Positions 1 through 47,170 of a DNA stretch of 64,000 bases are shown here, piece by piece. Both the position numbers and the translations under genes were made by a program. How positions within the stretch are numbered: position 1 is the first letter of the stretch; every line of letters starts with the position of its first letter. Under the pieces are notes generated by a model. That model searched no databases. It was not told where the DNA came from and worked only from the letters and a program-made list of their open reading frames with translations. Origin of the DNA: an uncultured Acidimicrobiaceae bacterium (GTDB lineage: Bacteria > Actinomycetota > Acidimicrobiia > Acidimicrobiales > Bog-793); contig CAWDDW010000003.1 in NCBI GenBank assembly GCA_963801185.1, positions 1,788,353-1,852,352 on the forward strand. Reading direction: 5' to 3'.

Positions 1-240
1 GGCCGGCGGCGCCCCCGAGGAAGCTCCGGCGCGAGAACCGGCCATCCGGGTCATCCGGTGGGCGCGCCGTCTCTCCTCCGGAGTCCGCTCCGGCCGGATC
101 GGCGGGTCGCCCGACGGGAACCTCGGCCTGGCCGGCTGGGTCGCCCTCGGTCACAGATGATCCCCTTCTCTTTTGGGTCGCGCGGCCGTAGTGTAACGGT
201 CGTGACCCGCGAATTGAAGAAGTTTCTTTCGTGGGGATCG

Positions 241-3200
241 ATGACTCGTGGCGTGGCCCGGCCTCTGTTCGCTTCATGCTTGCTCGTCTCCGGGCTCGGC
301 AGCGCGCTCGTCGTCGGGGCCGGCGGAAGCGCTGGCGCGGCTTCGCGCGACCGTGCCGCCATCGACCACTCGCCGTCGGGCGCGCCCCGGGTGCGCCTGT
401 CGGCGGGTTCCCGCTCGAGCGAACAGCCCCGCTACGTACCGCCGCCGCCGAACTCGCAGCCGAACGAGATCATCCGTGTCGCCGGCGGAGCGCCTCTTTC
501 GAGGTTCACCTCCGGCGTCCCCGCGATCGACGTGGCCCTCTCCAACCCCGGCGGTGTCGCGGTCAACTCGAAAGGCGACTTGTTCATCGCCGACACGGAC
601 GACAACGAGGTCCGCGAGGTGGCGCCCGACGGGATCATCACCACGATTGCCGGCAACGGCATCGCCGGCTTCAGCGGGAACGGCCACAAGGCCGTCGACG
701 CCGAGCTCGATCACCCCGAGGGCGTTGCGGTCGACTCGTCAGGTGACGTCTTCATAGCGGACACGGGGAACGACGAGATCCGCGAAGTGACTGGCGGCGT
801 CATCTCGGACTATGCCGGCGACGGCGTGCCGGGAGACAGCGGTGACGGCGGCCTAGCGACGGATGCGACGCTAACCGACCCCTACAGCGTCGCCGTCGGC
901 CCGAACGGCGAGCTCGCCATCGGGGACACCGACAACAACGCCGTCCGTCTCGTGTACCGGCACTACATCATCAACGGCGGTGCGAAGGGTTCACACATCA
1001 CCTTCCCCTTCGTCCTCTGGATCACCACGATTGCCGGTGGGGGCGTCCTGTACGGCGAGGGCAACCTCGGCACCGACACCTACTTGTCGGAGCCGACAGG
1101 CGTAGCGTTCGACTCGGCGGGGAATGTCTTCGTCGCCGACACCGGTGACTCCGATGTGCGGGAGATCTCCGAAGCTACAGGCGACATCTCCACTGTTGCT
1201 TACTGCCCCTACCCGAACGGTGTGGCGGTGGACTCGAAGGGCAACCTGTTCATCGCCGATCCCGAGCAGCAGCGCATACTCGAGCTTCCCGTCCGGCGGC
1301 TCGCTCAAGCGGATCGCCGGGAGCGGCATCGCGGGTGACTTCGGGGACGGCGGGACGGCCCGTGACGCACAGCTCGACTACCCGGCGGGGCTCGCGGTTG
1401 ACGGCTACGACGACGTCTTCATCGCCGACACCGACAACAGCCTCGTGAGAGAAGTCGTGGCTCCTCGGGTCCCGTACTTCTACGCCGACAGCCCTCCACT
1501 CGATGCTGGCGCCAAGCAGGTGTACTACTACCAGTTCGGCGCCTACGGAGTGCCCACGCCAACTTACAAGCTCGGCTCGGGCTCGCCCTCTTGGCTCGGG
1601 ATCGACAAGACGACCGGGCAGGTCCTCGGCACGCTCCCCTCCGGCGTCACCACGTTCAGCTACTCGGTGGTCGCGTCGAATTCCACGGGCTCGACGACGG
1701 CGGGGCCGTTCACCGTCACAGTCCCGAAGCCCTTCGTCTACGTCAACACCGGGCTGGCGTCTTACTCGAATCCGTTCGGCCTCGCCGAGGCCGGCTCGCC
1801 TCTCGGCTCCAGCCTGTTCGTAGCAGACTCCGGAAGAGGACACGTCGTCAAGCTCTCATCGATAGCGCAGTTCGTCGCCGACGTCGGCACTATGGGCACC
1901 GGGGTCGGGCAATTGAAGGACCCGACCGGTGTCGCGGTCGACGGTGCCGGCAATATCTGGGTGGTCGACGACGGCAACGACCGCATGGAGGAGTTCTCGG
2001 GCACCACTGGCCACGAGATCATGACCTTCGGCTTTCCGGGGTCCAATACGGGCGAGTTCGACGACCCGGCTGCGGTCGTCTTCGGCCCGAACGGCAACAT
2101 GTACGTCTCCGACTCCGGCAACGACCGCATCGAGGAATTCACCACGAGCGGGTCCTTCGTCACGAGCTTCGGCTCAGCCGGCAACGGCCCGGGGCAATTC
2201 GAAGACCCAGCCGGCCTGGCGTTCACGTCGGCGGGTGTCCTCCTCGTGGCCGACTACGGCAACAACCGGATCGAGGCGTTCACGTCGTTCGGTCTCTATA
2301 TCGGCAAGTTCGGCAAGGCCGGCTCGGGCCTAGGGCAGTTCGACCATCCCTTCGGGGTGGCAGTCGACTCGGCCGGAGACATCTTCGTCACCGACCGGGG
2401 CAACAACCGCGTCGAGGAATTCTCCTCGACGGCCGAGCCGATCGACCAGTTCGGGACGGCCGGCCACGCAGCGGGAGACCTCGAGGGCCCGACCGGGATA
2501 GGCATCTCCTCTAGCGGCATCCTCTCGGTCGTCGACACCGGGAACAAGCGCGTCGAGCAATTCGCCGAGCCCGCCAAGCCGGTGTTCACCACCGACAGCC
2601 CGCCTCTGTCCGACGCACCGAAAGCCGCCTACAGCTACGACTTCCACGCGAGCGGCGAGCCACCACCCACCTACTCGCTATCGGGTGCACCGGCTTGGCT
2701 CAGCATCAACTCGAACCTCGGCGACGTGACCGGCACGCCCCCGAGCCAGACGCTCACCTTCAGCTACTCGGTCGTCGCCAAGAACGCGAGCGGCGCGACG
2801 ACGGTCGGACCGTTCACCGTCACCGTCTCGACTCCCCTCGGCTTCATAGGCCAAATCGGGTCGTACGGGACGGGCAACGGCGAGCTCGACGCGCCGATCG
2901 GCGTGGCGGTCGCTCCCAACGGGAACTACTACGTGGTCGACCGCCTCAACAACCGGATCGAGGAGTTCAGCCCGTCCGGCACGTACGTGAGGCAGTTCGG
3001 GACCGAGGGCACCGGTGACGGCCAGCTCGATCTTCCCGTAGGCATCGCGGCTGACCCCGCGGGGGACATCTGGGTCACCGACTACGACAACAGCCGGGTC
3101 GAGGAGTTCTCCTCCACGGGCGCCTACATGTCCCAGTTCGGTTCGTTCGGACCTGCCACGGGCGAGTTCGACTCTCCCGAGGGCATCGCCATCGATCCCA

Positions 3201-34777: not shown

Positions 34778-36010
34778 GTGCGCACGAGTTCTCGCGCGGC
34801 TGACGCCGTGGTGGTGGGTGGTGGGACGATAGGCGGCTGGTGCGCGTGGTTCTTGCGGCGAGCCGGCCTCGAACGTGTTGTCGTGGTCGAGCGGTCGACG
34901 CTCGGGCGGGGAGCAAGCAGCCGGGCTTCGGGGATGGTGCGATGCCAGGGCGGCACCCCTTGGACCGTCAAGCTCGGGATGTGGAGCCGGGACTTCTATG
35001 TGTCGCAGCCCGACGTGGTCGGGGTGGACTCCGGGTTTGTCGCACAGGGCTACCTCATGCCGGCGCTTTCGGAGATGCAGGTCGCTCACGGGCTTGCCCG
35101 GGTCGCGATGCGGCGCGAGCTCGGGCTCGATGTGACCTGGCTCAGCCCCGCCGAGGCTGACGAGCGCCACCCTGCGATGGCCCGGGGCACTCATCTAGGC
35201 GGTTCGTACGCGCCCGGCGACGGGTACATCGATCCCCCGCGCAACGTGCTGGCGTACGCGACCGCACTCGTCCGGGACGGCGTCGAGTTGCGTGAGCGCA
35301 CGGAGTTCCGCGGCTTGTGCATGGCGGCCGACGGAGCGTCGGTGACGGGCGTCGACACGTCCTCGGGCGTCATCTCGACCGGACGTGTAGTCCTCACGGG
35401 TGGCCCGGAGCTGGCTGAGGTCGGCGCTCTGGCCGGGATCCGTGTCGCCGCCGGTGGTACCCGTCACCAGGTCGCTGTCACCGAGCCGCACCCCGAGGTG
35501 GCCCCGGAGCGGCTCGGCATGGTCTTCGACGTGGCCGAAGGCCTCTATTGGCGGCCCGAGGAGGGCGGTGTGTTGTTCGGGATGACCAATCCCGACGAGC
35601 TGCCCGGGCTCGCGCGTGAGGTCGACTGGCCATATCTCACGAAGATGCGCGAGCGGCTGACCGAGCTCGTGCCGATCTCACGCTCGCTCGCGTTGAAGCG
35701 CGTCTGGGCGGCGACCATCGATTACACGCCCGACCACCTGCCGATCGTCGGCCCCGGGTTGCAGGCCGACGGCGCACCGCTCGGCGGGGTTACCGTGGCC
35801 TCGGCGGGCGGTCACGGGATGATGTGGGGCCCTGCGCTCGCCCGCGTGGCCGCCAACCTCGCCCTTGACGGCTCGACCGGCGTGTTGGACGTGAGCGAGC
35901 TCGGGCTCGGGCGTTTCGACGCCGAGGGCCGCAGCCGCCTCGATCCGGATCCGATCGCTCTCCCGGTGCCAGAGGCTCTCTCCGTTCCAGAAAGGACATC
36001 TGTTTCATGA
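34778..36010 (+). CDS. FAD-dependent amine oxidoreductase (sarcosine oxidase beta/DAO family)
   Basis: VVVGGGTIG, GASSRASG, DGYIDP, DYTPDHLPIVG, GGHGMMWGP. Confidence 0.88.
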   Translation: MRTSSRAADAVVVGGGTIGGWCAWFLRRAGLERVVVVERSTLGRGASSRASGMVRCQGGTPWTVKLGMWSRDFYVSQPDVVGVDSGFVAQGYLMPALSEMQVAHGLARVAMRRELGLDVTWLSPAEADERHPAMARGTHLGGSYAPGDGYIDPPRNVLAYATALVRDGVELRERTEFRGLCMAADGASVTGVDTSSGVISTGRVVLTGGPELAEVGALAGIRVAAGGTRHQVAVTEPHPEVAPERLGMVFDVAEGLYWRPEEGGVLFGMTNPDELPGLAREVDWPYLTKMRERLTELVPISRSLALKRVWAATIDYTPDHLPIVGPGLQADGAPLGGVTVASAGGHGMMWGPALARVAANLALDGSTGVLDVSELGLGRFDAEGRSRLDPDPIALPVPEALSVPERTSVS

Positions 36011-36381
36011 CCGACAGTTCAGCCCTTGCCGCCTTCGCGGAGTCCCTCCCGGTACTCCGCGACGCCGCCACCACAACAGAGCTCGACGACTGGGGCCCGC
36101 TCGCCGAGGCGACAGGCGACATGATGTCGACGTCTGGGATCACCTTGTGGGAGGACGGCAACGGAGCCGAGACGGGCATCTGGGAGTGCACTCCTGGACC
36201 TTCGCATTGGAGCCTCGAGACGCACGAGTTCGTCCACGTCTTGTCGGGTTCGATGACCGTCACCGCCGACGGCGGGGATGCCGTTCACCTCGGGCCGGGC
36301 GACACCGTCCTCTTTCCCAAGGGTTGGTCGGGGGTCTGGCAGATCCACGAGACACTCCGGAAGCTGTACGTGATCTTCTAG
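36007..36381 (+). CDS. Cupin (DUF861/EutQ-like)
   Basis: TGIWECTPG, EFVHVLSG, FPKGWSGVW...RKLYV; ATGA overlap. Confidence 0.88.
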   Translation: MTDSSALAAFAESLPVLRDAATTTELDDWGPLAEATGDMMSTSGITLWEDGNGAETGIWECTPGPSHWSLETHEFVHVLSGSMTVTADGGDAVHLGPGDTVLFPKGWSGVWQIHETLRKLYVIF

Positions 36382-36622
36382 GAGTCGTTGCTGGCAGGCA
36401 CCGCCGCGTCGATAACGGCGTCCCACGCTCCGCCTCTGTAAACCGGGCAAGCAGCACTCGACCAGTCCATCCGAGTTGATGGCATTGGCTAGGCCGGTGC
36501 CGGCGAGACGCGCAGAGGGAGCCGCAGATGGACAGCACCGTAATCAGAATTTCAAGATTCGCCCCTTGATTTCGTGGGCGATTGGACCTATACAAGGCCC
36601 CAAAGCGGAAAGGGGGGCTGTC

Positions 36623-39600
36623 GTGGGTAACGACGCTCGTCTGCCAGTACTCCTGACCAAAGCTCAGGAGACGGTCCAGGATCGGGGGTCGCCGCAGACG
36701 GCGGAGCAAGCGGCGGAGTCCGCGCGCCCCGGCGAGATGAACCGGCGTACGGCTCTCAAGGTGATCGGGTCGACCGGTGTCGCGGTCGGGCTGGCGTCCT
36801 ACGGTGCTCGCCTGCGCGCCGGCCGCCGGGCCATCCGCAACGCGATCGAGACCGGTGCGCGACTCGTCCCCCATGGCGGGGCGACCACGTCGGTCCCGAG
36901 CCTGACGGTAGATGTCTACCGACGGGACGACTTGTTCGATCTGAGCTTCGACTTCTTCAACCTGCAGCTGACAAGCGGTGGCGGCACGCCTGAGCTCACC
37001 AAGATCTCGGCGACCAAACCTACCTACGTCGTGGTCAACTTCCCGATGCAACACCTCGGCGAGGAGGCGGTCCCGAGCCCGCCGGCTCCGCCGTTCCTGG
37101 CGACGCCGCTCGGTGCCTACGCGGCGGGGCCGTCACAGCTCGTGTTCGAGGTACCGAAGACCCTCGAATCGATCCCGTTCACTCTTGAAGGCCTCCTTAG
37201 CTGGATGACACTGATCCCGGAGATAACGACGGCCGAGAAGATCAGCGCATCCGGGCTCGGCGCACCAAGCCAGTTCGAGACCTTCATCGAGGCGCCATGG
37301 CAGCTGTTCCTGTCGCCGCAAGTCGCGGGCAAGTGGTACCACTCGGCGACGCCGGTGACCCACGGGGAGTGGACCGAGCTCTGGCAGACCCGGCTTGGCA
37401 CCGCAAAGGGCGAATACCCCGCCGTTACGCCGGAGATCGCCGCGATCTGGGCACCGGACTGGCCCGAGGTCGGCCCGGAGGACCCGTTCGTGATGCCGCT
37501 TTTGAACACCGACCGCCGGGACATCGTGTTGCTGTCGTCCGGCGGCACGAACAGCCAGACCGGTGGGGTCGTGACAGGCATCCCCATCCCGATACACGTC
37601 TTCATGCTCACGCCGCTCGGCGCCACAATGGACCTCGACGGCCGGTGGAACGAGCCGAGCGTGTCGTCACTCATCGAGTGGCGCGAGCGGATGACGACCG
37701 GGCGTGACAGCTACGTGAGGATCGTGCGCGCGGGTTTCATCTACCCCTTTGGCCACAAGGCAGTCTGGATCACGATCACGGACCGGGAGTTCCAGGTCAG
37801 CCCGGACGGAGATGTCGTCGCATACCTCGTGCAGGAGCAGTTCGTCGAGATCACCGAGCCCGAGAAGACCTATCCCGGCAAGTCGCCCGAGCCTTACAGT
37901 GGGCGTCAGAACCCATTCCGCTCGATCAAGGCAAAGACCGCCACCTCTCCGGCGCTCGACTCGCCGTCGTTCATCTCGACGGCCTACACCGACGGCGCGT
38001 TCTGGCCGATGTCCGACGGGGCGCCGATCCCGTTCTCCTTCCAGGGAATCGACGTCGAGGGCCGGACCATCGACTTCACGACGAACGTCATCTGGGTCGA
38101 CGAACTGGCGGCATACGACTACACGACATCAGTGCCGAGCGTTGAGACCGAGTACACGGCCGGAGGCAACACTGCCAGGCGCAGCCCCACGCTGAACGGT
38201 CAGCTCGTGGCATTCGCTCCGCCCTCAGCCGCCGAGCCGGGGGCCACGGCCCACCACGCCGACGCGATGGAATTCGACGCCATCGTGATCAACGATGCCG
38301 GCCAGTACCAGCCGGCCTGGTTCCCCGTGATGGCGAACGTGACCGTGCGCATCCCCGCCGCCGAGCAGGTGACCGGCGCCGAGCTTCCTGGGTCGCCGCC
38401 TGTGTTCGACTACGCCACGCAATACCTGACGAACGGCTTCCAGGCTGGCGTCCCCGAGGTGTTCTTCACTCTCGACGCGTCGTCGACAGCCGCTCCGCTC
38501 ACCTTCCCTGCGGACAAGTCGGGCGGCATGGTCACCCCGAACTTCAAGATCGACGGCCTCTCCCGCCAGCACGGGCCGACGGCGGACTCGCACAACCTGT
38601 TGGCGAAGAACTTCAACCCGACCAACTACTTCGGCGGCCTAGAGGCGAAGATCCTCGGCGGCCTCGACCTTTTTTCGATCATCGAAGCAATCCTCGGCCC
38701 CTCGGTCTCGAGCAAGTTGCCGAAGATCAAGTCACACCTCGTGTTCCCCGCCAACAACTCGAAGTTGGCGCCGACCGGGCTCCAGACGACCGTCGACTGG
38801 AAGCCGAGCGTCTCGCAGGACCCGACGGGGACCTTCGACCCGAAGGGATCCGCCTCGAAGACGCTCGACATCCATGTCAAGATCTTCACGCCTTTCGCCG
38901 ACCCCTCCGCCACGACCTTCCAGATACAGGGCAAGCTCGTCAACTTCGACGTGAACCTGTTCGGGTCGGACGCGAAGGGCGGGCTGACCTTTCTCGACAT
39001 CCACTTCAAGAAGCTGCTGTTCACTGCCAAGACCGGAGCAAAGGCGCAATTCAGCGTCGACATCAGCACGGTCACGTTCGAGGGCCCGCTCACTTTCATC
39101 AACGACCTCGAGCAGTACCTCGCCTCTCTCGGCGGTCCGAGCATCGACATCCAGCCGTCGGGACTCACGGTCAGCTACACGCTCCCACTGCCGGACATCA
39201 CAGTCGGCGTCCTGGCGATCGAGAACATCTCGCTCTTCGGCAAGCTAACGCTCCCCTTCGACGGGACGCCCGTCCGCCTCGAAGTGGACTTCTGCACCCG
39301 GGACAACCCGTTCCTGTTGACCATCTATTGCTTCGGGGGCGGGGGCTTCTTCGGTATAGCGCTCGGCACCGACGGGATCGAGCTCATCGAGGTGAGCCTC
39401 GAGTTCGGCGCGGCGATCGCGATGGACCTCGGCGTCGCCTCCGGGAGCGCGTCGATCATGGCGGGGATCTACTTCTCGCTCGCTCCGAACACTCATCCGA
39501 CGGGAGCACACCCGCCGGCCGACGTGGTGACGCTGACCGGCTTCTTGCAGGCGAACGGGGACCTCGAGGTGCTCGGCATCATCAGCATCTCCATCCTCTT

Positions 39601-39800
39601 CTACCTGGGCTTCACATACCAGGACCCAGGTAAGTGCACCGGGACGGCTACCGGTCACCGTGACGGTGAAGGTGCTCTTCTTCTCCGCGTCGGTCAGCTT
39701 GACGGTGACGAAGACCTTCGGAGGGAGCGGGGACCCGAGCTTCGCGCAGGCGATATCGCAGAGCGACTTCGACACCTATTGCGCCGCCTTCGCGGCGTAG
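36623..39800 (+). CDS. Giant hypothetical protein A (about 1058 aa) with Tat-like leader and beta-strand-rich C-terminus; +1 frameshift near 39652
   Basis: RBS GAAAGGGGG then GTG; NRRTALKVIGSTGVAVGLA twin-Arg motif; strong GC3 codon pattern. Corrected C-terminus reads VTVTVKVLFFSASVSLTVTKTFGGSGDPSFAQAISQSDFDTYCAAFAA*. Confidence 0.8.
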
Positions 39801-39802
39801 TG

Positions 39803-39838
39803 ACGGGAATCGGTACGGGAATCCGCACGGGAACGAAG
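39803..39838. repeat. Degenerate 12-bp repeat x3 in the A-B spacer
   Basis: ACGGGAATCGGT ACGGGAATCCGC ACGGGAACGAAG. Confidence 0.7.
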
Positions 39839-39852
39839 AACGGGGCGCAGAC

Positions 39853-42800
39853 ATGACCATCAATCAGCGGCTCATCTGGACGGCGCTGCCGAACGGCATC
39901 ACGCCCGACAACCTGAACTACAAGCTCTCGGTCTTCGTCTCGCCGAGACTGTTCACGGACGAAGGGAGTGCGAGCGAGCGGCTGTCGAGCTTCCCGGACT
40001 TCCTCGACTGGCCGGCAACACCTATCACCTTCTCGGTGCACCTAGCGTCGAAGTCACCCACTGTGACGGTGACCAGCCCGGCCCCCAACCGCACCCTCTG
40101 GAAGACCCTGTTCCATCCGACGACGTTCGTCGAGCCCTATGTGTACACGAGCATCGCCGACCAGAATTTCCACTCGTACCCGACGAACTTCCTCCGGGAC
40201 TGGTTCGTGAGCACGTACGCAACGCTGTTCAACGCCAACCCGACCGAGTACCCGTCCCTCTCCGACCTCGGCCTCGGCCCGGGTGGGGCGCAAGGGCCGT
40301 ACAGCCAGCTCCCCATCAATCCCGCCGCGGCGATCAGGGAGATAAACGACCAGCTCGCACAGGGGGTGTCCCCACCGGCCGGCGGGCCGGCAGTCCACGC
40401 CATCGGGCCGGCGGCGAGCGCCAACCCACCAACCGACTTCGAGCAGGCTCGAGCTCTTCCTCCAACCTCTCACGACCACGCCGCCCACCTACAACCCGAA
40501 GGTTCACCCCGCCAAGCCTTCGATCGACTTCCACAAGATGGTCTCGCTGCTCGGTCAGTACCCGTCGTTGCTCCGGCTCTTCGGGCTCGTCTACGACTTC
40601 GAGGTCCCGATCCCGAGCGGATTGTCGGGCCCCGTGATCGTGAGCGTGACGCCGACGTGGACCCCTGTTCTTGCCGCCACGACGAATGTGGTGCCGGCGA
40701 CGTATGCGGATCCGGTCACGTTTCTCCCGTATCCGCGGGCCACCAACCCGGAGATCGCAGAGGGCCTGCTCCGGATGAGCGACTCGGTCCCTTCGCAGCC
40801 CTCGCAGCCCGGCTATCCCCTGCTCAAGGCTCGAGATCGACGGGTCGACGCTGAAGACCCTCAACTTCGCCCGGGGCGTCCAGCGGGCGACGACGACGAT
40901 GGCCTCGAGCGCCACACCGAGCGCGTATGCGGTGCCGGCGCTGCGCTCGGCTGGGCTCGCCGTCGCCCACACGGGCCAAGCTCTCGACTTCGGCCAGGGC
41001 ATGCAGCAGGCCGACTCGCTCGATGCGGCGGCGGAGTCGAACTCCCCGATCTTCCTCTACGCAGAGGACATCGTCCGCGGCTTTCGGATCGACGCCTGGG
41101 ACAGCGGCTCGAATGCGTGGCACCAGCTGTGCGCCCGCTCGGCTGCACCGGCGCTCGGCGGTTACCTCATCGGCAAGGCGCCACACGCGATAGTCGAGCC
41201 GGTGCCGTCGGGGGAGGAGGGCTGGGTCGAGCTGTCTCTCGCGCAAGGCGACGCCGGCGGCTCGAACGACTCCTACATGAGCGAGCTGATCTTCCGGTGG
41301 CAGGGATGGAGCCTCGTCGCGCAGCGACCTGGTCAGCACCTCTCAGACGACCCGTCCGATGGTCTCGAGCCCCCCAGAACAACCCCCCGACAGGGGTGTT
41401 CCCCTTGCAGGTCTCCTTCGCCGCGACCCCTGGGACGTTGCCGCTCTTGCGTTTCGGCCTGGAGTACGCCTTCCGCGCCAGGGCGGTCGACCTCGCCGGC
41501 AACAGCATCGCGTTCGACCCGACGGCGACGGCCGTCTCCTTCACTTACGCGACGCCGACGCTTCGATACGGCCGCGTCGAGCCACTCCAGAGCCCGCCAC
41601 TCGTGGCGCACGACCCGCGCGGAGAGCTCGTCGGCGGCGTCCTGCAGATCATCTCGCCCGGTGAGCACCTCAAGCGCCTCGTCATCCGGAGCGAGATGTA
41701 CGACACGCCCGACTCGAGCGTCAGCCCGACCTCCCGCCACGTAGTCCCGCCCTCGACGAGCGAGTTGATGGCAGAGACGGCCGGACAGCTCGACACCTCT
41801 ACTCACTCGCCCGACCCCTCGCTCTACCCGACGATCGCCGCGCTCGCCGGTGTCACCTATTCGGACTCGGCGGTCATCACCGCCCTCGGGGGCGCGACCG
41901 ACCCTGGGAGCGCCGGGGCCCCGTATTACACGGTCGACAACCTTGCGGTGCCCTACCTGCCCGACCCGTACGTCGCCGGCGCCTGCCTGCAGAACGTCCC
42001 CGGCTCGCCGGCGCCCTTGTTGATCCCCTTCGGCGGCTCGGGTTACAGCTGGCCGGCGACGCTCGCATTCCGCATGGAGATTCAGGCGGGTCCCGGTGCT
42101 CCGATCCTGCCGATCGCCGGCAACAACTACACCCTCTCGCTCTTCGCGCCGAAGGCAACCGTCCAGACCATGCTCCTCTCTTCGTACCTCGACGTGTCGA
42201 GCCTCGACTCGATGGCTCTGTGGGAGTGGTTGCAAGAGGCGGGTTTCGACACGCCGGCGAACCAGTCGGTGCTGTTGTCGGGCGAGGCGTACATGATCAC
42301 GCCGTACCGCAGCCTGACCATCGTCCACGCCGTGCGCCAGCCGCTGACGGTCCCGCAGTTCACGGCGCCGTACATCACCCGCGACCTTGGGAAGACGTTC
42401 GCCTTGCTTGGCGACACGATCAAGGTCGACTACATGTCCAGCCAGAAACTCGACGTCTACGCAGTCTGGTCCGAGCCCTTCGACGACGGCGTCAACCCGA
42501 TCGGGTCGGTGGAGCTCGCGTTCAACTCTCCCGTGGGCGAGGTGACGCTCGATCTCACGAACGACACGGCGACATCGGTGACGATCCCGGCCGCCGGCCC
42601 TCCGGCGGTGCCGGCCCTCCGCCACGACTTCGGGGACACGAAGTACCGGCTCGTCTACTACGAGGCGAGGTCGACCTCCCGGTTCCTCGAATACTTCACA
42701 CAGGCCGTGTCGGTCACCCTCACCGACGCGAACCCGGCGACGGTGTACGGTTCCGCGCTGGCGACCGGCACCGTCGTCGTCTCGACCGAGGGGAGCGGCT

Positions 42801-43966
42801 CGACGCCGCCCGACATCTACCAGCCGACGATCGACTACACCGAGGACGACGCCGGCGGGACCATCACCGCGATCGAGGGCGGGGCGATCATCCCGTCTGG
42901 AGGCGGTTCGGCGACCGTCGACGTCTCCTTCGTGCCGGCGCCGGTGACACGTTCCAGCCTGGAAGAGGTTGTGTCGCCGGCGACATCGACGGGCTACCCG
43001 CTCATAGTGCCGAGCACTGCACGGCCGAGCGCGCCCGACGTCCGCTACGTGTTGCCGCTCTTCTCGTTCACCGACGAGACCTCGACGTCACCGCCGGGGA
43101 TCACGAGCACCCGCACGGGCAACGCCGTGCGGGTCTACCTCGGGCGGCCGTGGTGGTCCTCCGGGGACGGCGAGCTGCTCGGCGTGCTCGTCTTCGAGGC
43201 TCTCGGCGGGCCCTTCCCGCCGGCCACCTACGAGCCGTTCGCGACCCGCTACGGGCGCGACCCGCTGTTCGAGACGAATCCGGTCGAGACAGTGCCCTCG
43301 CTGGCGAACTTCTCCCTGGCCGAGACGACGGCCGTGAACCTCACGATTCCAGAGACCGGCTCGGCGACGGCATGGAGCGTGGCCGGGCACACTGTCAGCT
43401 TCGATACGACTCACCAGCTCTGGTACGCCGACATCGCCATCGACACCTCGGTGCCGTCGGGTTCGGGAAGCGTGGACTCCTACTGGCCGTTCGTCCGCCT
43501 CGGGCTCGTGCGGTACCAGCCGAACTCGCTAGGCGGTGTCGAATGCTCGACGGTCGTGGTCGCCGACTTCGTGAAGCTGGCATCCGATCGGACAGCCAGC
43601 CTGACGTTCCCGACTCCGACTCAGGTGGCCATCTCCGTCAACGGCGTGAGCTTCGGGAGCGGGCCCGCTCCGCTCGACGGCTCGAGCGTCATGTATGCCA
43701 CCGTTGAGGTTCAGCGAGGTGGCGGAGTCTCGGATCCCGACCTGATCTGGGTGGCAGTGCCTGGCTCGACCGTCGAGCTCGGGTCGGCCGCTACCGGCAG
43801 TTACGGCGTGAACTGGACGGGAACAGTCGATCTCCCCGGCCCACAGGGCAGCCAGCCTTTCCGCATCCGCCTCGAGGAGTTCGAGCTCATCCCGTCGGCC
43901 GTGCCGACGCTCACGGTCCCGCCGCCGGCACAGCGCCGGACCTACATCGACACATTGCAGATCTGA
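39853..43966 (+). CDS. Giant hypothetical protein B (about 1370 aa); three frameshifts near 40448, 40830 and 41370
   Basis: ORF pieces join seamlessly: MTINQRLIWTALPNG...QLELFLQP...IDFHKMVSLLGQYPSLLRLFGLV...LEIDGSTLK...PALRSAGL...LYAEDIVRGFRIDAWD...FRWQGWSL...LPLLRFGLEYAFRARAVDLAGNS...LGRPWWSSGDGELLGV...YWPFVRLGLVRYQPNS. Confidence 0.8.
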
Positions 43967-43990
43967 TTGCAGATCTGATTGCAGATCTGA
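43955..43990. repeat. Perfect 12-bp repeat x3 that triplicates the stop codon of gene B
   Basis: (TTGCAGATCTGA)3; each unit reads LQI* in frame. Confidence 0.95.
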
Positions 43991-44012: not shown

Positions 44013-45315
44013 TCAGCTCCCGATCGCCACGGCGGACCAGGTCGCGCCACCGTCGTCCGACTCGTACAGCCGCGACGTGACTGCCGAACCCGAATCGGAC
44101 GTCGCGAGCAGGGCGTAGGCGCGATCCGGGTCGCTGTAACCGGCCCAGGTGATGCTCGAGCTCGCCGATCCCGAGAGCACGACCGAGAAGCTCGCACCTC
44201 CGTCTGTCGTCTCCTCGAGTGCGTTGGGCGATGCGCCGGGCGCCGCTTGGGCGGGCCAGGCGAGCGCGACTGCGGCGGAGGCAGCCGTGAGTTGCATGTG
44301 GTTGTCGAAGCCCCCTGCCTCCGGGCGCCAACCTGCACCGCCATTGGTCGACACCCACGCCTCGGCCTCCGTCCCCGTCGGGCAGGCGGCCCAGAGCGTG
44401 GGTGTGCCATCGGCGGTAGCCGTCACCCTGCCCCCGAGAGAGGCAGTGCAGGGATCGGCCCGCTGGCTGAAGCTCGCCCCCCTGTCGTCGGAGTACAGAA
44501 GGGAAGCTCGGCCAGAGCCGCTCAGGACGTACAAGTTCGGGCCGCTCAGGGCGATCTCCGCGCCCACGCCGAGCGCTACCGGCGTCGGCACCTTCTCCCA
44601 CCTGCGTGATCCGAGCGCAGAGCGGAGGAGCTCGGGTGACTGGCACCTCGCGGAGCCGGCCGCGCAAGCGAGCGCGTACGTCTCGCCATCGGCGGTCTCA
44701 GCGCCCGTGACGGTCGCGCCCGAGAGGGCGATCCTGACCCAGCTCGACCCTCCGTTCGTCGTCTCCCACAACTCCGGGTCAAAGGCGTATCCGTCGAGGC
44801 TCGTTGGCATAACCCAACTGGGTCACCGCACTCGCGCTCACCGGCGGGCTCGGGATGCCGCTGAACTTCGACCCTCCGTCGGTCGTGCGGACGATCGCGC
44901 CGCAGGTACCCGTGCCTGTGAGGCAACGACCCGTCCCTAGCAACCACCACTCGTCGAGGCTCACCGCCGTGAACGAGCTCGGCTGGAAGTCTGCCGGGAC
45001 CACGCCTCCGGGCGGACCGGTCGCGTTGCTCGGCAGGGTGGTGGTACCGGCAGCCGGCGAGGTGGTCGTCGTGGAGGTTGGCGAGGTGGTCGCCGTGGTC
45101 GATGTGCTCGGCCCTCCGACGCTTGTCACATCGGGTCCCGACCCACCCTTCGAGGAGCCGGCCGAGCCGATGAGGACGATCGTGCCCGCCAGGACCGCCG
45201 CGGCAACAGTGCCGGTCAGGCCGATGCGGAGCCGGGAGCGCCGCCGGCGGAGCCGGCGACCGCGATCGAGCGCCTCTCGGACGACTTTTTCGACACTGCT
45301 CTCGGGTACGTTCAT
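44013..45315 (-). CDS. Probable single-pass anti-sigma factor with extracytoplasmic BNR/Asp-box propeller, about 433 aa; frameshift near 44800
   Basis: MNVPESS...RGRRLRRRRSR, TM helix, Thr-rich linker, Asp-boxes (RTTDGGSKF, TTNGGSSW, SDDRGASF, STNGGAGW, SDDGGATW); ATGA-coupled to the sigma gene. Confidence 0.78.
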
Positions 45316-45894
45316 TTCGCAACCTCTCGAGCCCGCTCCCCGAGTGAGATGCGCAGTGAAGCGAGTGCCCTCTCGAGATGCTTGCGAACCGTTCCCGGCG
45401 AGATCCTCATCACCCGCGACGTCGTCTACGGCCAGGTCTGCGATGTGGTGGAGAACGAGTGCCTCCCGCTGCTTCGCGCTGAGCCGCCTGAGCGCGGAGA
45501 CCAGGTCGGCTCGCAGATCGGACCGGTCGTCGAAACTCTCGGCTGTCGCTTGCTCGGGGGCGACCCGCAGTGAACGGGCCTCCCGCCTCCCGGCGTCGTA
45601 CGCCAGGTTCATCGCCACACGGTGCACCCAGGCGACCCTGTAAGGGGCAGCCGCGATCCGATCCCAGTGCAGGTACGCACGAGCAAGAGCCTCCGACGCG
45701 ATTCCCTCTACGTCAGAGCCGCGAGGAGCCAGCTTGCCGGCCGCACGGAGCAGGCTCGGCGTGGCCTCTCGAGCGAACGAGACGAACTCCTCGTCGCTCG
45801 TCGACGACCGGCCCCGGTGTTCGTCGGCGACGAGCGTGAGCGCCAGAGGAGTGACCGGGTGGGGGTCTTCGACCACTCCTGCATTGTTGCTCAC
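45312..45894 (-). CDS. ECF sigma-70 factor; frameshift near 45415
   Basis: EALARAYLHW...AWVHRVAMNLAYD; LSAKQREALVLHH; the shifted frame restores VMRISPGTVRKHLERALASLR...EVAK*. Confidence 0.85.
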
Positions 45895-46015: not shown

Positions 46016-47170
46016 ATGAATCGATCCATCAGCCAGACTGTCACAGGCGTCGGTGGCGCCCTGTTGCTGGGCGCGGCGGCGCTGCTTGCGCCTGCGGGAG
46101 CCGCCTCGGCCGGGACCGGCACAGCCAGCCGGCCCGTTCCGAAGGGGTTCAAGGTCAACTCCGTCACGTGGCTTACGAAGGACCAGGGTTGGGTGCTCGG
46201 TGCAGCTCCGTGCGGGTCGAAGTCGAAGCTCTGCACCGATGTCATCGGCACCACTGACGGGGGCGCGACGTGGAGCCTGCTCGGCGGCGTCAAGGCGCCG
46301 ATCCCGAAGGTGTCGCTCGGAGAGCCAGGCGTGACGGAGATTCGTTTCGCAACACCTGAAGATGGCTGGGTGTTCGGGCCAGGGCTGTTCCACAGCACCA
46401 ACGGCGGCCGCTCCTGGTCGGCCGAGAGGATTCCCGGCCACGCGAAGCAGGTGAGAGCTCTCGCCGTGAACTCGGGAGCGGCTTACACCGTTGCCTCGAC
46501 GTGCGACGTGGGTGTGGTGTGCAAGGCCTCGCCGAGCCTGTGGACGACCTCCTCGTTGACCGGCAGCTCGTGGAAGGCAGTCGCGCTGAAGCTTCGGAGC
46601 TCGCCCATCGTCACAGTCACCGTCTACGGCCAGACCGTCTACGTCCTCAATGGGAGGACGGACACGGGCGGCAACAAGCTCTGGGCCAGCACCGACGGTG
46701 GTTCCCACTTCTCGTCTCGGCCCGTGCCGTGCGACAGCACCGAGGACAACTCGCTCATCTCGGTCGCCGCCTCGTCGGCCACCGACGTCGCCCTCCTCTG
46801 TGAAGGGGCCGCGGCAGCATCCGACGCCGGCAAGGCCGTCTACAGGTCGGACAACACGGGGAAGACCTACACGTACGCCGGCGCGCTCGGCTTGCCCGGG
46901 ATCCAGGCTCAACTCGCCATGTCGCCGTCGGGGAACCTGGCGGTCGCGGCGACCTCCACCGGCTCGTTCATGTACATCAACGACAACCACAAGACGGCCT
47001 GGACCCTTGCGATCGCCGACTCCGACGGCGGAGCCGGATGGAACGACCTCGTGTACACGACCGACAGCGAAGCCTTCGTCGTCTACTCACCCGCAGACGG
47101 TTTCGTAGACACCGCCGAGCTCTACATCACCCACGACGGCGGTCGCCACTGGAGCGTCGTCACGCTGTGA
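46016..47170 (+). CDS. Secreted BNR/Asp-box (Ycf48-like) beta-propeller protein
   Basis: Signal peptide ending ASA; TTDGGATW, STNGGRSW, STDGGSHF, SDNTGKTY, THDGGRHW. Confidence 0.85.
   Translation: MNRSISQTVTGVGGALLLGAAALLAPAGAASAGTGTASRPVPKGFKVNSVTWLTKDQGWVLGAAPCGSKSKLCTDVIGTTDGGATWSLLGGVKAPIPKVSLGEPGVTEIRFATPEDGWVFGPGLFHSTNGGRSWSAERIPGHAKQVRALAVNSGAAYTVASTCDVGVVCKASPSLWTTSSLTGSSWKAVALKLRSSPIVTVTVYGQTVYVLNGRTDTGGNKLWASTDGGSHFSSRPVPCDSTEDNSLISVAASSATDVALLCEGAAAASDAGKAVYRSDNTGKTYTYAGALGLPGIQAQLAMSPSGNLAVAATSTGSFMYINDNHKTAWTLAIADSDGGAGWNDLVYTTDSEAFVVYSPADGFVDTAELYITHDGGRHWSVVTL

Follow-up and report, generated by a model that had tools for sequence, protein, structure and literature searches.

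Large co-transcribed subunits and a patchy, plasmid-borne spread are properties of the Tc/ABC and binary toxins. Bacterial alpha-2-macroglobulin with PBP1C is a patchy two-gene module with a giant beta-rich extracytoplasmic protein, and the protein Rv2525c is itself a substrate of twin-arginine translocation (Tat). Excerpts of two papers establish that a partner without a signal can be exported along with a partner that bears a Tat signal (PMC4273604, PMC10924467), and the excerpt of a third describes natural Tat cargo of up to 'over 140 kDa' (PMC13673990). Here we describe genes A and B, which encode two giant proteins side by side in a 64,000-nucleotide (nt) stretch of DNA from an uncultured Acidimicrobiaceae bacterium (assembly GCA_963801185.1, contig CAWDDW010000003.1, positions 1,788,353 to 1,852,352; hereafter the window). 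The pair had been singled out from the sequence alone as an obligate, heteromeric extracellular complex (the original prediction). We find that A-B is a self-contained, horizontally mobile two-gene module of unnamed giant-protein families. As to what it does, we tentatively favor, at somewhat less than even probability, an intact mobile module whose A protein, with B bound, is exported by Tat and forms a complex acting at the cell envelope.

Genes A and B are whole and form a mobile pair

Gene A occupies 36623-39800 on the plus strand, from a GTG start at 36623 (the ATG at 36737 is an alternative start) to a TAG stop at 39798-39800. It encodes 1058 amino acids (aa; 112.9 kDa) once a spurious base at ~39653 is left out. 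Gene B follows at 39853-43966 (+), from an ATG at 39853 to a TGA stop at 43964-43966, and encodes 1370 aa (145.1 kDa) after three indel corrections. The spacer between them (39801-39852, +) is exactly 52 nt long. One break in A and three in B leave the pair as five open reading frame (ORF) pieces, listed as 36476-39856, 39853-40854 and 40538-43966 plus an out-of-frame stretch within the last piece. The G+C content of third codon positions (GC3) and a Viterbi codon-usage path trained on the organism's own genome (G000) place the frame changes at ~39651, ~40446, ~40830 and ~41370. There is no stop codon at any switch, and the coding signal is continuous in every ORF piece of A and B.

The indels were placed by walking the intact database proteins P0001 (1058-aa A) and P0194 (1370-aa B) along the window. 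Both stem from another assembly and are protein-identical to the window save for four single-base indels and two substitutions. As a read-derived check, we used the contigs of four publicly available soil runs (two studies), one of which is a possible source sample. The first error (39652-39654, +) is one extra base at ~39653 that shifts the last 48 codons of A and is absent in 4/4 runs. The second (40449-40451, +) is one extra base at ~40450, absent in 3/3 covering runs, and the third (40826-40828, +) combines an A for G at 40826 with one extra base, corrected in 4/4 runs. At the fourth (41369-41376, +), one C is missing from a C run and is present in 4/4 runs, and at the fifth (41672, +), an A for G turns E607 of B into K where 4/4 runs have G. 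All four indels and both substitutions are thus absent from the run contigs, in 4/4 runs at five places and in 3/3 at 40450. The window matches its own genome G000 exactly (three contigs, 3.85 Mb, 85.6% completeness), and the errors therefore sit in the deposited assembly. Its own database products, P0192 (1077-aa A with a shifted tail) and P0070 (an 853-aa B fragment), share 90% clusters with the intact P0001 and P0194.

The frame changes at A and B are assembly errors, and both genes are whole. Real indels in a decaying locus, the outcome named in the original prediction as fatal to it, did not materialize, since all four are absent from the run contigs. Over the whole genome, the Viterbi path changes frame on the same strand without a stop ~663 times. 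The three contigs have rates of 18.8, 7.7 and 17.7 per 100 kb, or ~1 per 6 kb for contigs 1 and 3 and half as many for contig 2. This number fits the 85.6% completeness estimate of the three-contig assembly. With ~1 indel error per 6 kb, broken genes in this assembly should not be read as pseudogenes. The window holds 11 switches, and the seven outside A and B lie at ~1284(+), ~10278(-), ~18576(-), ~55749(+), ~56463(+), ~57831(+) and ~60780(-). Assembly indels like those in A and B, but in other genes, are their probable cause. That every gene is broken in the assembly can be set aside, with rpoB and rpoC each in one open frame; errors are common there but do not affect all genes. An effect of the motif CTCGAG/GAGCTC as the cause of the indels was likewise rejected; the motif is not enriched at the locus (1.5 per kb versus 1.48 genome-wide).

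The observations behind the original prediction are confirmed at the coordinates given. The two co-oriented genes 52 nt apart, the five ORF fragments and the four indels were all located, and the lengths of 1058 and 1370 aa match the intact database forms. All eight motifs that it quoted (including WTELWQTRL and FRWQGWSL) occur in P0001 and P0194, in conserved columns of the family alignments. The proteins are also non-repetitive, as it had claimed: the only repeats found are a 12-nt repeat at the stop of B, described below, and, among direct repeats of at least 30 nt at the locus, a single 36-nt pair with 75% identity.

A and B are an obligate, nearly strict gene pair. Among 401 evenly sampled genomes of the phylum, A occurs in 11 and B in 11. 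Ten genomes hold both, and in all ten the genes are adjacent and co-oriented, A then B (9/9 without the unpublished genome G148). In the A-only genome, A ends 60 nt from a contig end, and the B-only genome shows a 150-nt match in a 370-contig assembly. Across phyla, pairing was counted at the 80 best loci, which span at least eight phyla. At 75 of these (75/76 of the assessable loci), B has A as its immediate upstream neighbor in the same orientation. Four of the five misses start at a contig end, and the fifth, a Chlorobiota metagenome-assembled genome (MAG; L066), has no A within 10 kb. The gap between A and B in relatives is mostly 0-40 nt, and in many the two overlap or abut. Co-occurrence and gene order therefore bear out the obligate A+B pairing of the original prediction, and the independent occurrence that it had named as a counter-argument comes down, in the phylum sample, to one contig end and one 150-nt fragment.

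None of the 80 loci reveals a third conserved gene beside A-B. The commonest flank cluster is found at 10/80 loci and is generic, and the recurrent flank families are generic too (ABC exporter, STAND/cyclase, GGDEF-EAL, SDR, glycosyltransferase). A minus-strand ORF that recurs upstream of the pair at nine loci was rejected as a partner; it overlaps the N-terminal extension of long-form A and, judging by its coordinates, is read as a shadow ORF. On plasmid p1 of Bacillus sp. PGP15 (L099), the pair adjoins helicase-domain, HEPN and GTP pyrophosphokinase genes, and on plasmid pRlX2 of Rhizobium ruizarguesonis (L100), it adjoins patatin-like phospholipase and SHOCT genes. These neighbors, each from a single locus, may represent a conflict-island context.

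Both families are widespread. A profile of A recovers 6401 cluster representatives (50% identity) at E<=1e-3, of which 3406 reach E<=1e-30. B has 964 relatives among 8000 scored candidates and matches at least 472 places in a one-genome-per-species collection. Its hosts include Actinomycetota, Bacillota, Chloroflexota, Pseudomonadota, Acidobacteriota, Armatimonadota, Chlorobiota and others, with Streptomyces herbicida, Paenibacillus amylolyticus 27C64 and Geobacter hydrogenophilus among the cultured carriers. Relatives of B occur on 18 of 72,556 plasmid records, seven from Bacillus (including B. cereus, B. wiedmannii, B. tropicus and B. pseudomycoides), three from Streptomyces, three from Rhizobium, two from Cupriavidus and the rest from others.

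The bacterium's own genome encodes four pairs. Besides the present one, contig 2 carries an unbroken pair, and contig 3 has two further pairs broken up by frame switches like those described here. The A cores of the four copies are only 32-43% identical. A tree of A was built from 118 matched pieces, keeping the 62 sequences with at least 80% coverage of model positions 530-935. In it, copy 1 is nearer to its counterparts in other Acidimicrobiales MAGs than to the paralogues of the same genome. At the left edge of the window (1-469, -) lies the 5' end of a further A paralogue, whose Tat-like motif is FSRRSFLGG. Its pair extends leftwards beyond the window (G000:C3:1780986-1788821) and is fragmented by frame switches.

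By the sequence methods used, A and B belong to no described family. Above the curated Pfam cut-offs, the window pieces have no match, and 33 A and 33 B relatives scanned singly yield only TAT_signal (4/33 A relatives, best E 1.7e-4) and the bacterial Ig-like domain Big_3_2 (4/33 B relatives, best E 2.9e-4). NCBIfam gives no match for the window pieces of A and B, and PADLOC no model for four proteins, two of each family. Searches of the PDB with profiles of 33, 33, 91 and 51 sequences return nothing better than E 0.077. In the Atlas clusters, the A homologue P0044 appears only as 'hypothetical protein' without Pfam and the B homologue P0141 falls in no named cluster, and on five inspected plasmids RefSeq/GenBank either call the homologues 'hypothetical protein' or leave them unannotated. 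The accession numbers of six annotated homologues appear in no paper; by this and a keyword search, the sole grounds for the statement, the family was not found in print. Thus, the original prediction, which had recognized no catalytic or repeat family for either protein, agrees with Pfam, NCBIfam, PADLOC and the PDB. A-B is a very large and widespread pair of families without name, domain or structure in the databases used. A distant structural relation to a known machine is possible and is the main risk to the claim of newness.

The two proteins show no kinship to each other (hhalign probability 0.1). A has period-2 hydrophobicity in 48% of its 14-residue windows and helical periodicity in 15%, and its sequence suggests a beta-rich protein. 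It is conserved from end to end, and most of all in a C-terminal region that is rich in glycine and moderately hydrophobic. In many A homologues, an additional 400-750 residues precede the rest of the protein at the N-terminus, and this part has no Pfam match. B is also conserved throughout and has a strongly conserved N-terminus, M-x-x-Q-x-x-x-WTALPNG. The family alignments of A and B show no cluster of conserved Cys/His residues of the kind that points to a cofactor.

Export signal and possible function

Read from the ATG at 36737, A begins with a Tat-type signal, MNRRTALKVIGSTGVAVGLASYG (36737-36805, +), in which the RR motif NRRTALK precedes the moderately hydrophobic stretch VIGSTGVAVGLA. 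A thus has the S/T-R-R-x-F-L-K-like motif and hydrophobic stretch of a Tat substrate. All four A paralogues of the genome have an RR motif with a hydrophobic region, and the genome also encodes the Tat machinery component TatC (G000:C1:405394-406053, 209 bits). Among full-length close relatives of A (at least 950 aa, 63/69), 57 of 63 have RR within the first 70 residues. Farther afield, 62 of the 75 paired loci hold the N-terminus of A and entered the signal count. A rough pattern finds a Tat-like signal in 37 of these 62 (~60%), which come from several phyla.

B begins differently, and the B of the window has neither a signal peptide nor a hydrophobic segment. The conserved motif of B starts within a few residues of the N-terminus in 78/78 loci (those of the 80 whose match begins by model position 10), too close to the end to accommodate a signal peptide. 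Hydrophobic segments are missing from 87 of 96 full-length B relatives (at least 1250 aa, 96/121), and the other nine have one weak segment each. B is therefore a signal-less, always co-encoded partner like those of Tat 'hitchhiker' pairs, lacking a signal in 78 loci and adjacent to A in 75/76. The extracellular location given in the original prediction is upheld in part: A bears a Tat-type signal here and in the four paralogues of the genome, whereas many A homologues and all B are without one.

We propose that the A and B proteins are made together and that A crosses the cytoplasmic membrane folded, via the Tat system. B would most likely leave bound to A as a passenger, along the hitchhiker route. 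Its export is suggested by analogy, because B is always co-made with A and has no export route of its own. The product would be a ~254 kDa complex (108.9 + 145.1 kDa) on the outward-facing side of the membrane or in the wall. The exported complex may act at the cell envelope, perhaps on glycans.

A few A homologues have accessory domains related to carbohydrates, a hint that the complex binds or acts on glycans, of the cell wall or otherwise. One homologue (P0250) has an inserted CBM_4_9 domain (38.7 bits, cut-off 25.9), and another (P0328) ends in an Rv2525c-like glycoside-hydrolase-like domain (32.0 bits, cut-off 27.2). One further long A homologue has a sub-threshold cohesin match. In addition, a DUF1906 gene adjoins the A-B pair on a Bacillus bombysepticus plasmid.

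Several findings weigh against the proposed export of an envelope-acting complex. The predicted mass of A+B exceeds the 'over 140 kDa' of Tat cargo described in the excerpt of PMC13673990. No cleavage site was assigned to the signal of A. Among the diverse A homologues, 25/62 have no signal and start at the conserved core or with another extension, and a stricter rule, which misses some evident cases, scores 76 of 146 A representatives as Tat-like and about half as without a signal. Export therefore does not hold for the A family as a whole. A weak search found no A-B fusion protein, the longer relative P0343 being an A with an insertion, and the glycan lead comes from 2 of the 17 long A homologues scanned.

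In its most far-reaching form, the proposal describes a cofactor-less ~254 kDa heterodimer that would be assembled in the cytoplasm and exported whole by Tat, encoded by a mobile cassette in at least eight phyla, frequently as several divergent copies in one genome, and acting on the walls or glycans of its own cell or of neighbors. We consider this full version unlikely. If true, A+B would be by far the largest Tat cargo known. A-B could show whether Tat carries a complex close to double its known size limit, and would reveal the role of a widespread unnamed envelope complex in soil bacteria. A strictly paired cassette of 2400 codons, present in four copies in a 3.85-Mb genome, also represents a large cost to the cell.

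A rival to the proposal is that Tat exports A alone. B would then be cytoplasmic and act on or with A before export, by folding, modifying or holding it, or it would be the inner partner of a membrane-spanning pair. Such a role would account for the missing signal of B in all 78 loci, and it relieves the problem of size: the ~254 kDa sum is beyond the Tat cargo described in the cited excerpt, whereas A alone, at ~109 kDa, is within range. However, B is larger than A and conserved throughout, unlike a dedicated chaperone. The pairing is also equally strict where A has no signal, which argues that the role of B is not tied to export as such. We regard export of A alone as distinctly unlikely.

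A secreted two-component toxin or pore directed against other organisms, the first option of the original prediction, is a special case of an exported complex. It would suit the patchy distribution in the phylum sample (10 of 400 other genomes), the four own copies with A cores of 32-43% identity and the 18 plasmid records with relatives of B, seven of them from Bacillus. A glycine-rich, moderately hydrophobic C-terminal region as the most conserved part of A fits this idea as well, as do the lectin-like or hydrolase-like add-ons of a few homologues. Yet Pfam and the PDB show no toxin family that resembles either protein, the pair has no conserved neighbor of the kind of a small immunity gene, and many homologues have no export signal. 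A toxin or pore is improbable in our estimate.

The module could instead be a cytoplasmic or membrane-associated conflict system, for example in phage defense, with the Tat signal added secondarily in some lineages. A patchy, mobile and multi-copy distribution would be in keeping with this, and ~40% of the A homologues have no signal. The helicase-domain, HEPN and GTP pyrophosphokinase genes beside the pair in Bacillus sp. PGP15 point in the same direction, but this context comes from one locus. The four A and B proteins compared with PADLOC match none of its models, Pfam detects no nuclease, ATPase or other defense-typical enzymatic domain in A or B, and all four own copies bear the Tat motif. 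Such a system is very doubtful. Finally, a decaying pseudogene pair, for which one could cite a mild excess of frame changes (four in 7.3 kb at the locus versus ~1.3 expected from the contig average), is refuted by the run contigs and next to impossible: all four changes are absent there and in the second assembly, codon usage is coding-like in every piece, and apart from the errors the proteins are identical to the intact database forms.

Layout and surroundings of the locus

Gene A is preceded by a cupin gene (36007-36381) and a 36382-36622 intergenic region that shows no coding signal in GC3 or the Viterbi path and is likely the promoter or leader region of A. Its G+C content of 0.614, against 0.679 for the window, places it in the lowest 3.8% of 241-nt windows. 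The less GC-rich character assigned to it in the original prediction is thus correct, and the distinct promoter could not be matched to a site, as the region contains no sigma-70-like consensus. Rfam yields no riboswitch or leader RNA upstream of A at E<=1. No promoter-like sites were found at the locus, and the single terminator-like site lies inside gene B on the minus strand and is below the shuffle count. None of the 8 sequencing runs found to contain the stretch is listed as RNA, which speaks neither for nor against expression. Within the A-B spacer, the word ACGGGAA occurs three times, spaced roughly 12-13 nt.

A perfect tandem repeat of 12 nt x3.1 (Tandem Repeats Finder) lies at and behind the stop of gene B (43954-43990, +). 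Each unit equals the final three B codons plus TGA, in frame, and contains the 8-nt palindrome CAGATCTG. Contigs from the other runs are identical at this repeat, and its predicted RNA fold is no better than that of shuffles. Downstream, the minus strand encodes a BNR/sortilin-like repeat protein and an ORF for an extracytoplasmic function (ECF)-type sigma factor with a long C-terminal extension (44013-45894), followed by a further BNR/sortilin-like gene at 46016-47170 (+). These BNR/sortilin-like and ECF-type sigma factor genes are not conserved beside A-B at other loci.

Comparison with known systems

Two kinds of system were considered and rejected. Phage structural proteins are not a match: relatives of B are absent from all 50,697 phage records and appear on a single contig among the 2.9 million in IMG/VR, and among four A/B-family proteins compared with PHROGs only P0083 gives a hit, a weak one (E 1.9e-4). 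Nor does a known anti-phage defense system fit, with 0 PADLOC families among the four proteins compared.

The Tc/ABC and binary toxins share with A-B very large co-transcribed subunits, a patchy plasmid-borne spread and several copies per genome. Their Pfam domains, however, are missing from A, B and the 66 aligned relatives, and there is no PDB match. The likeness to these giant toxins appears to be one of lifestyle only. The modules of bacterial alpha-2-macroglobulin and PBP1C are similar in being two-gene modules with a giant beta-rich protein and a patchy distribution, but Pfam finds neither alpha-2-macroglobulin nor transpeptidase domains in A-B. The Rv2525c-like/DUF1906 proteins are connected to A-B through the domain fused to the A homologue P0328 and the DUF1906 gene beside the pair on one Bacillus plasmid. 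A and B of the window lack this domain, which is an occasional add-on and does not belong to the core.

The Tat hitchhiker pairs, as they are described in the cited excerpts, include the hydrogenase small and large subunits, DmsAB and PaoABC. A-B is like them in having neighboring genes, a signal on one partner and a signal-less partner that is always present. It differs in that it has no sequence relation to them and no conserved Cys/His cofactor cluster, is ~2x the largest Tat cargo described in the excerpt of PMC13673990, and includes many A members without a signal. Although its size falls outside the described range, A-B would by analogy resemble Tat hitchhiking, and this alone among known mechanisms.

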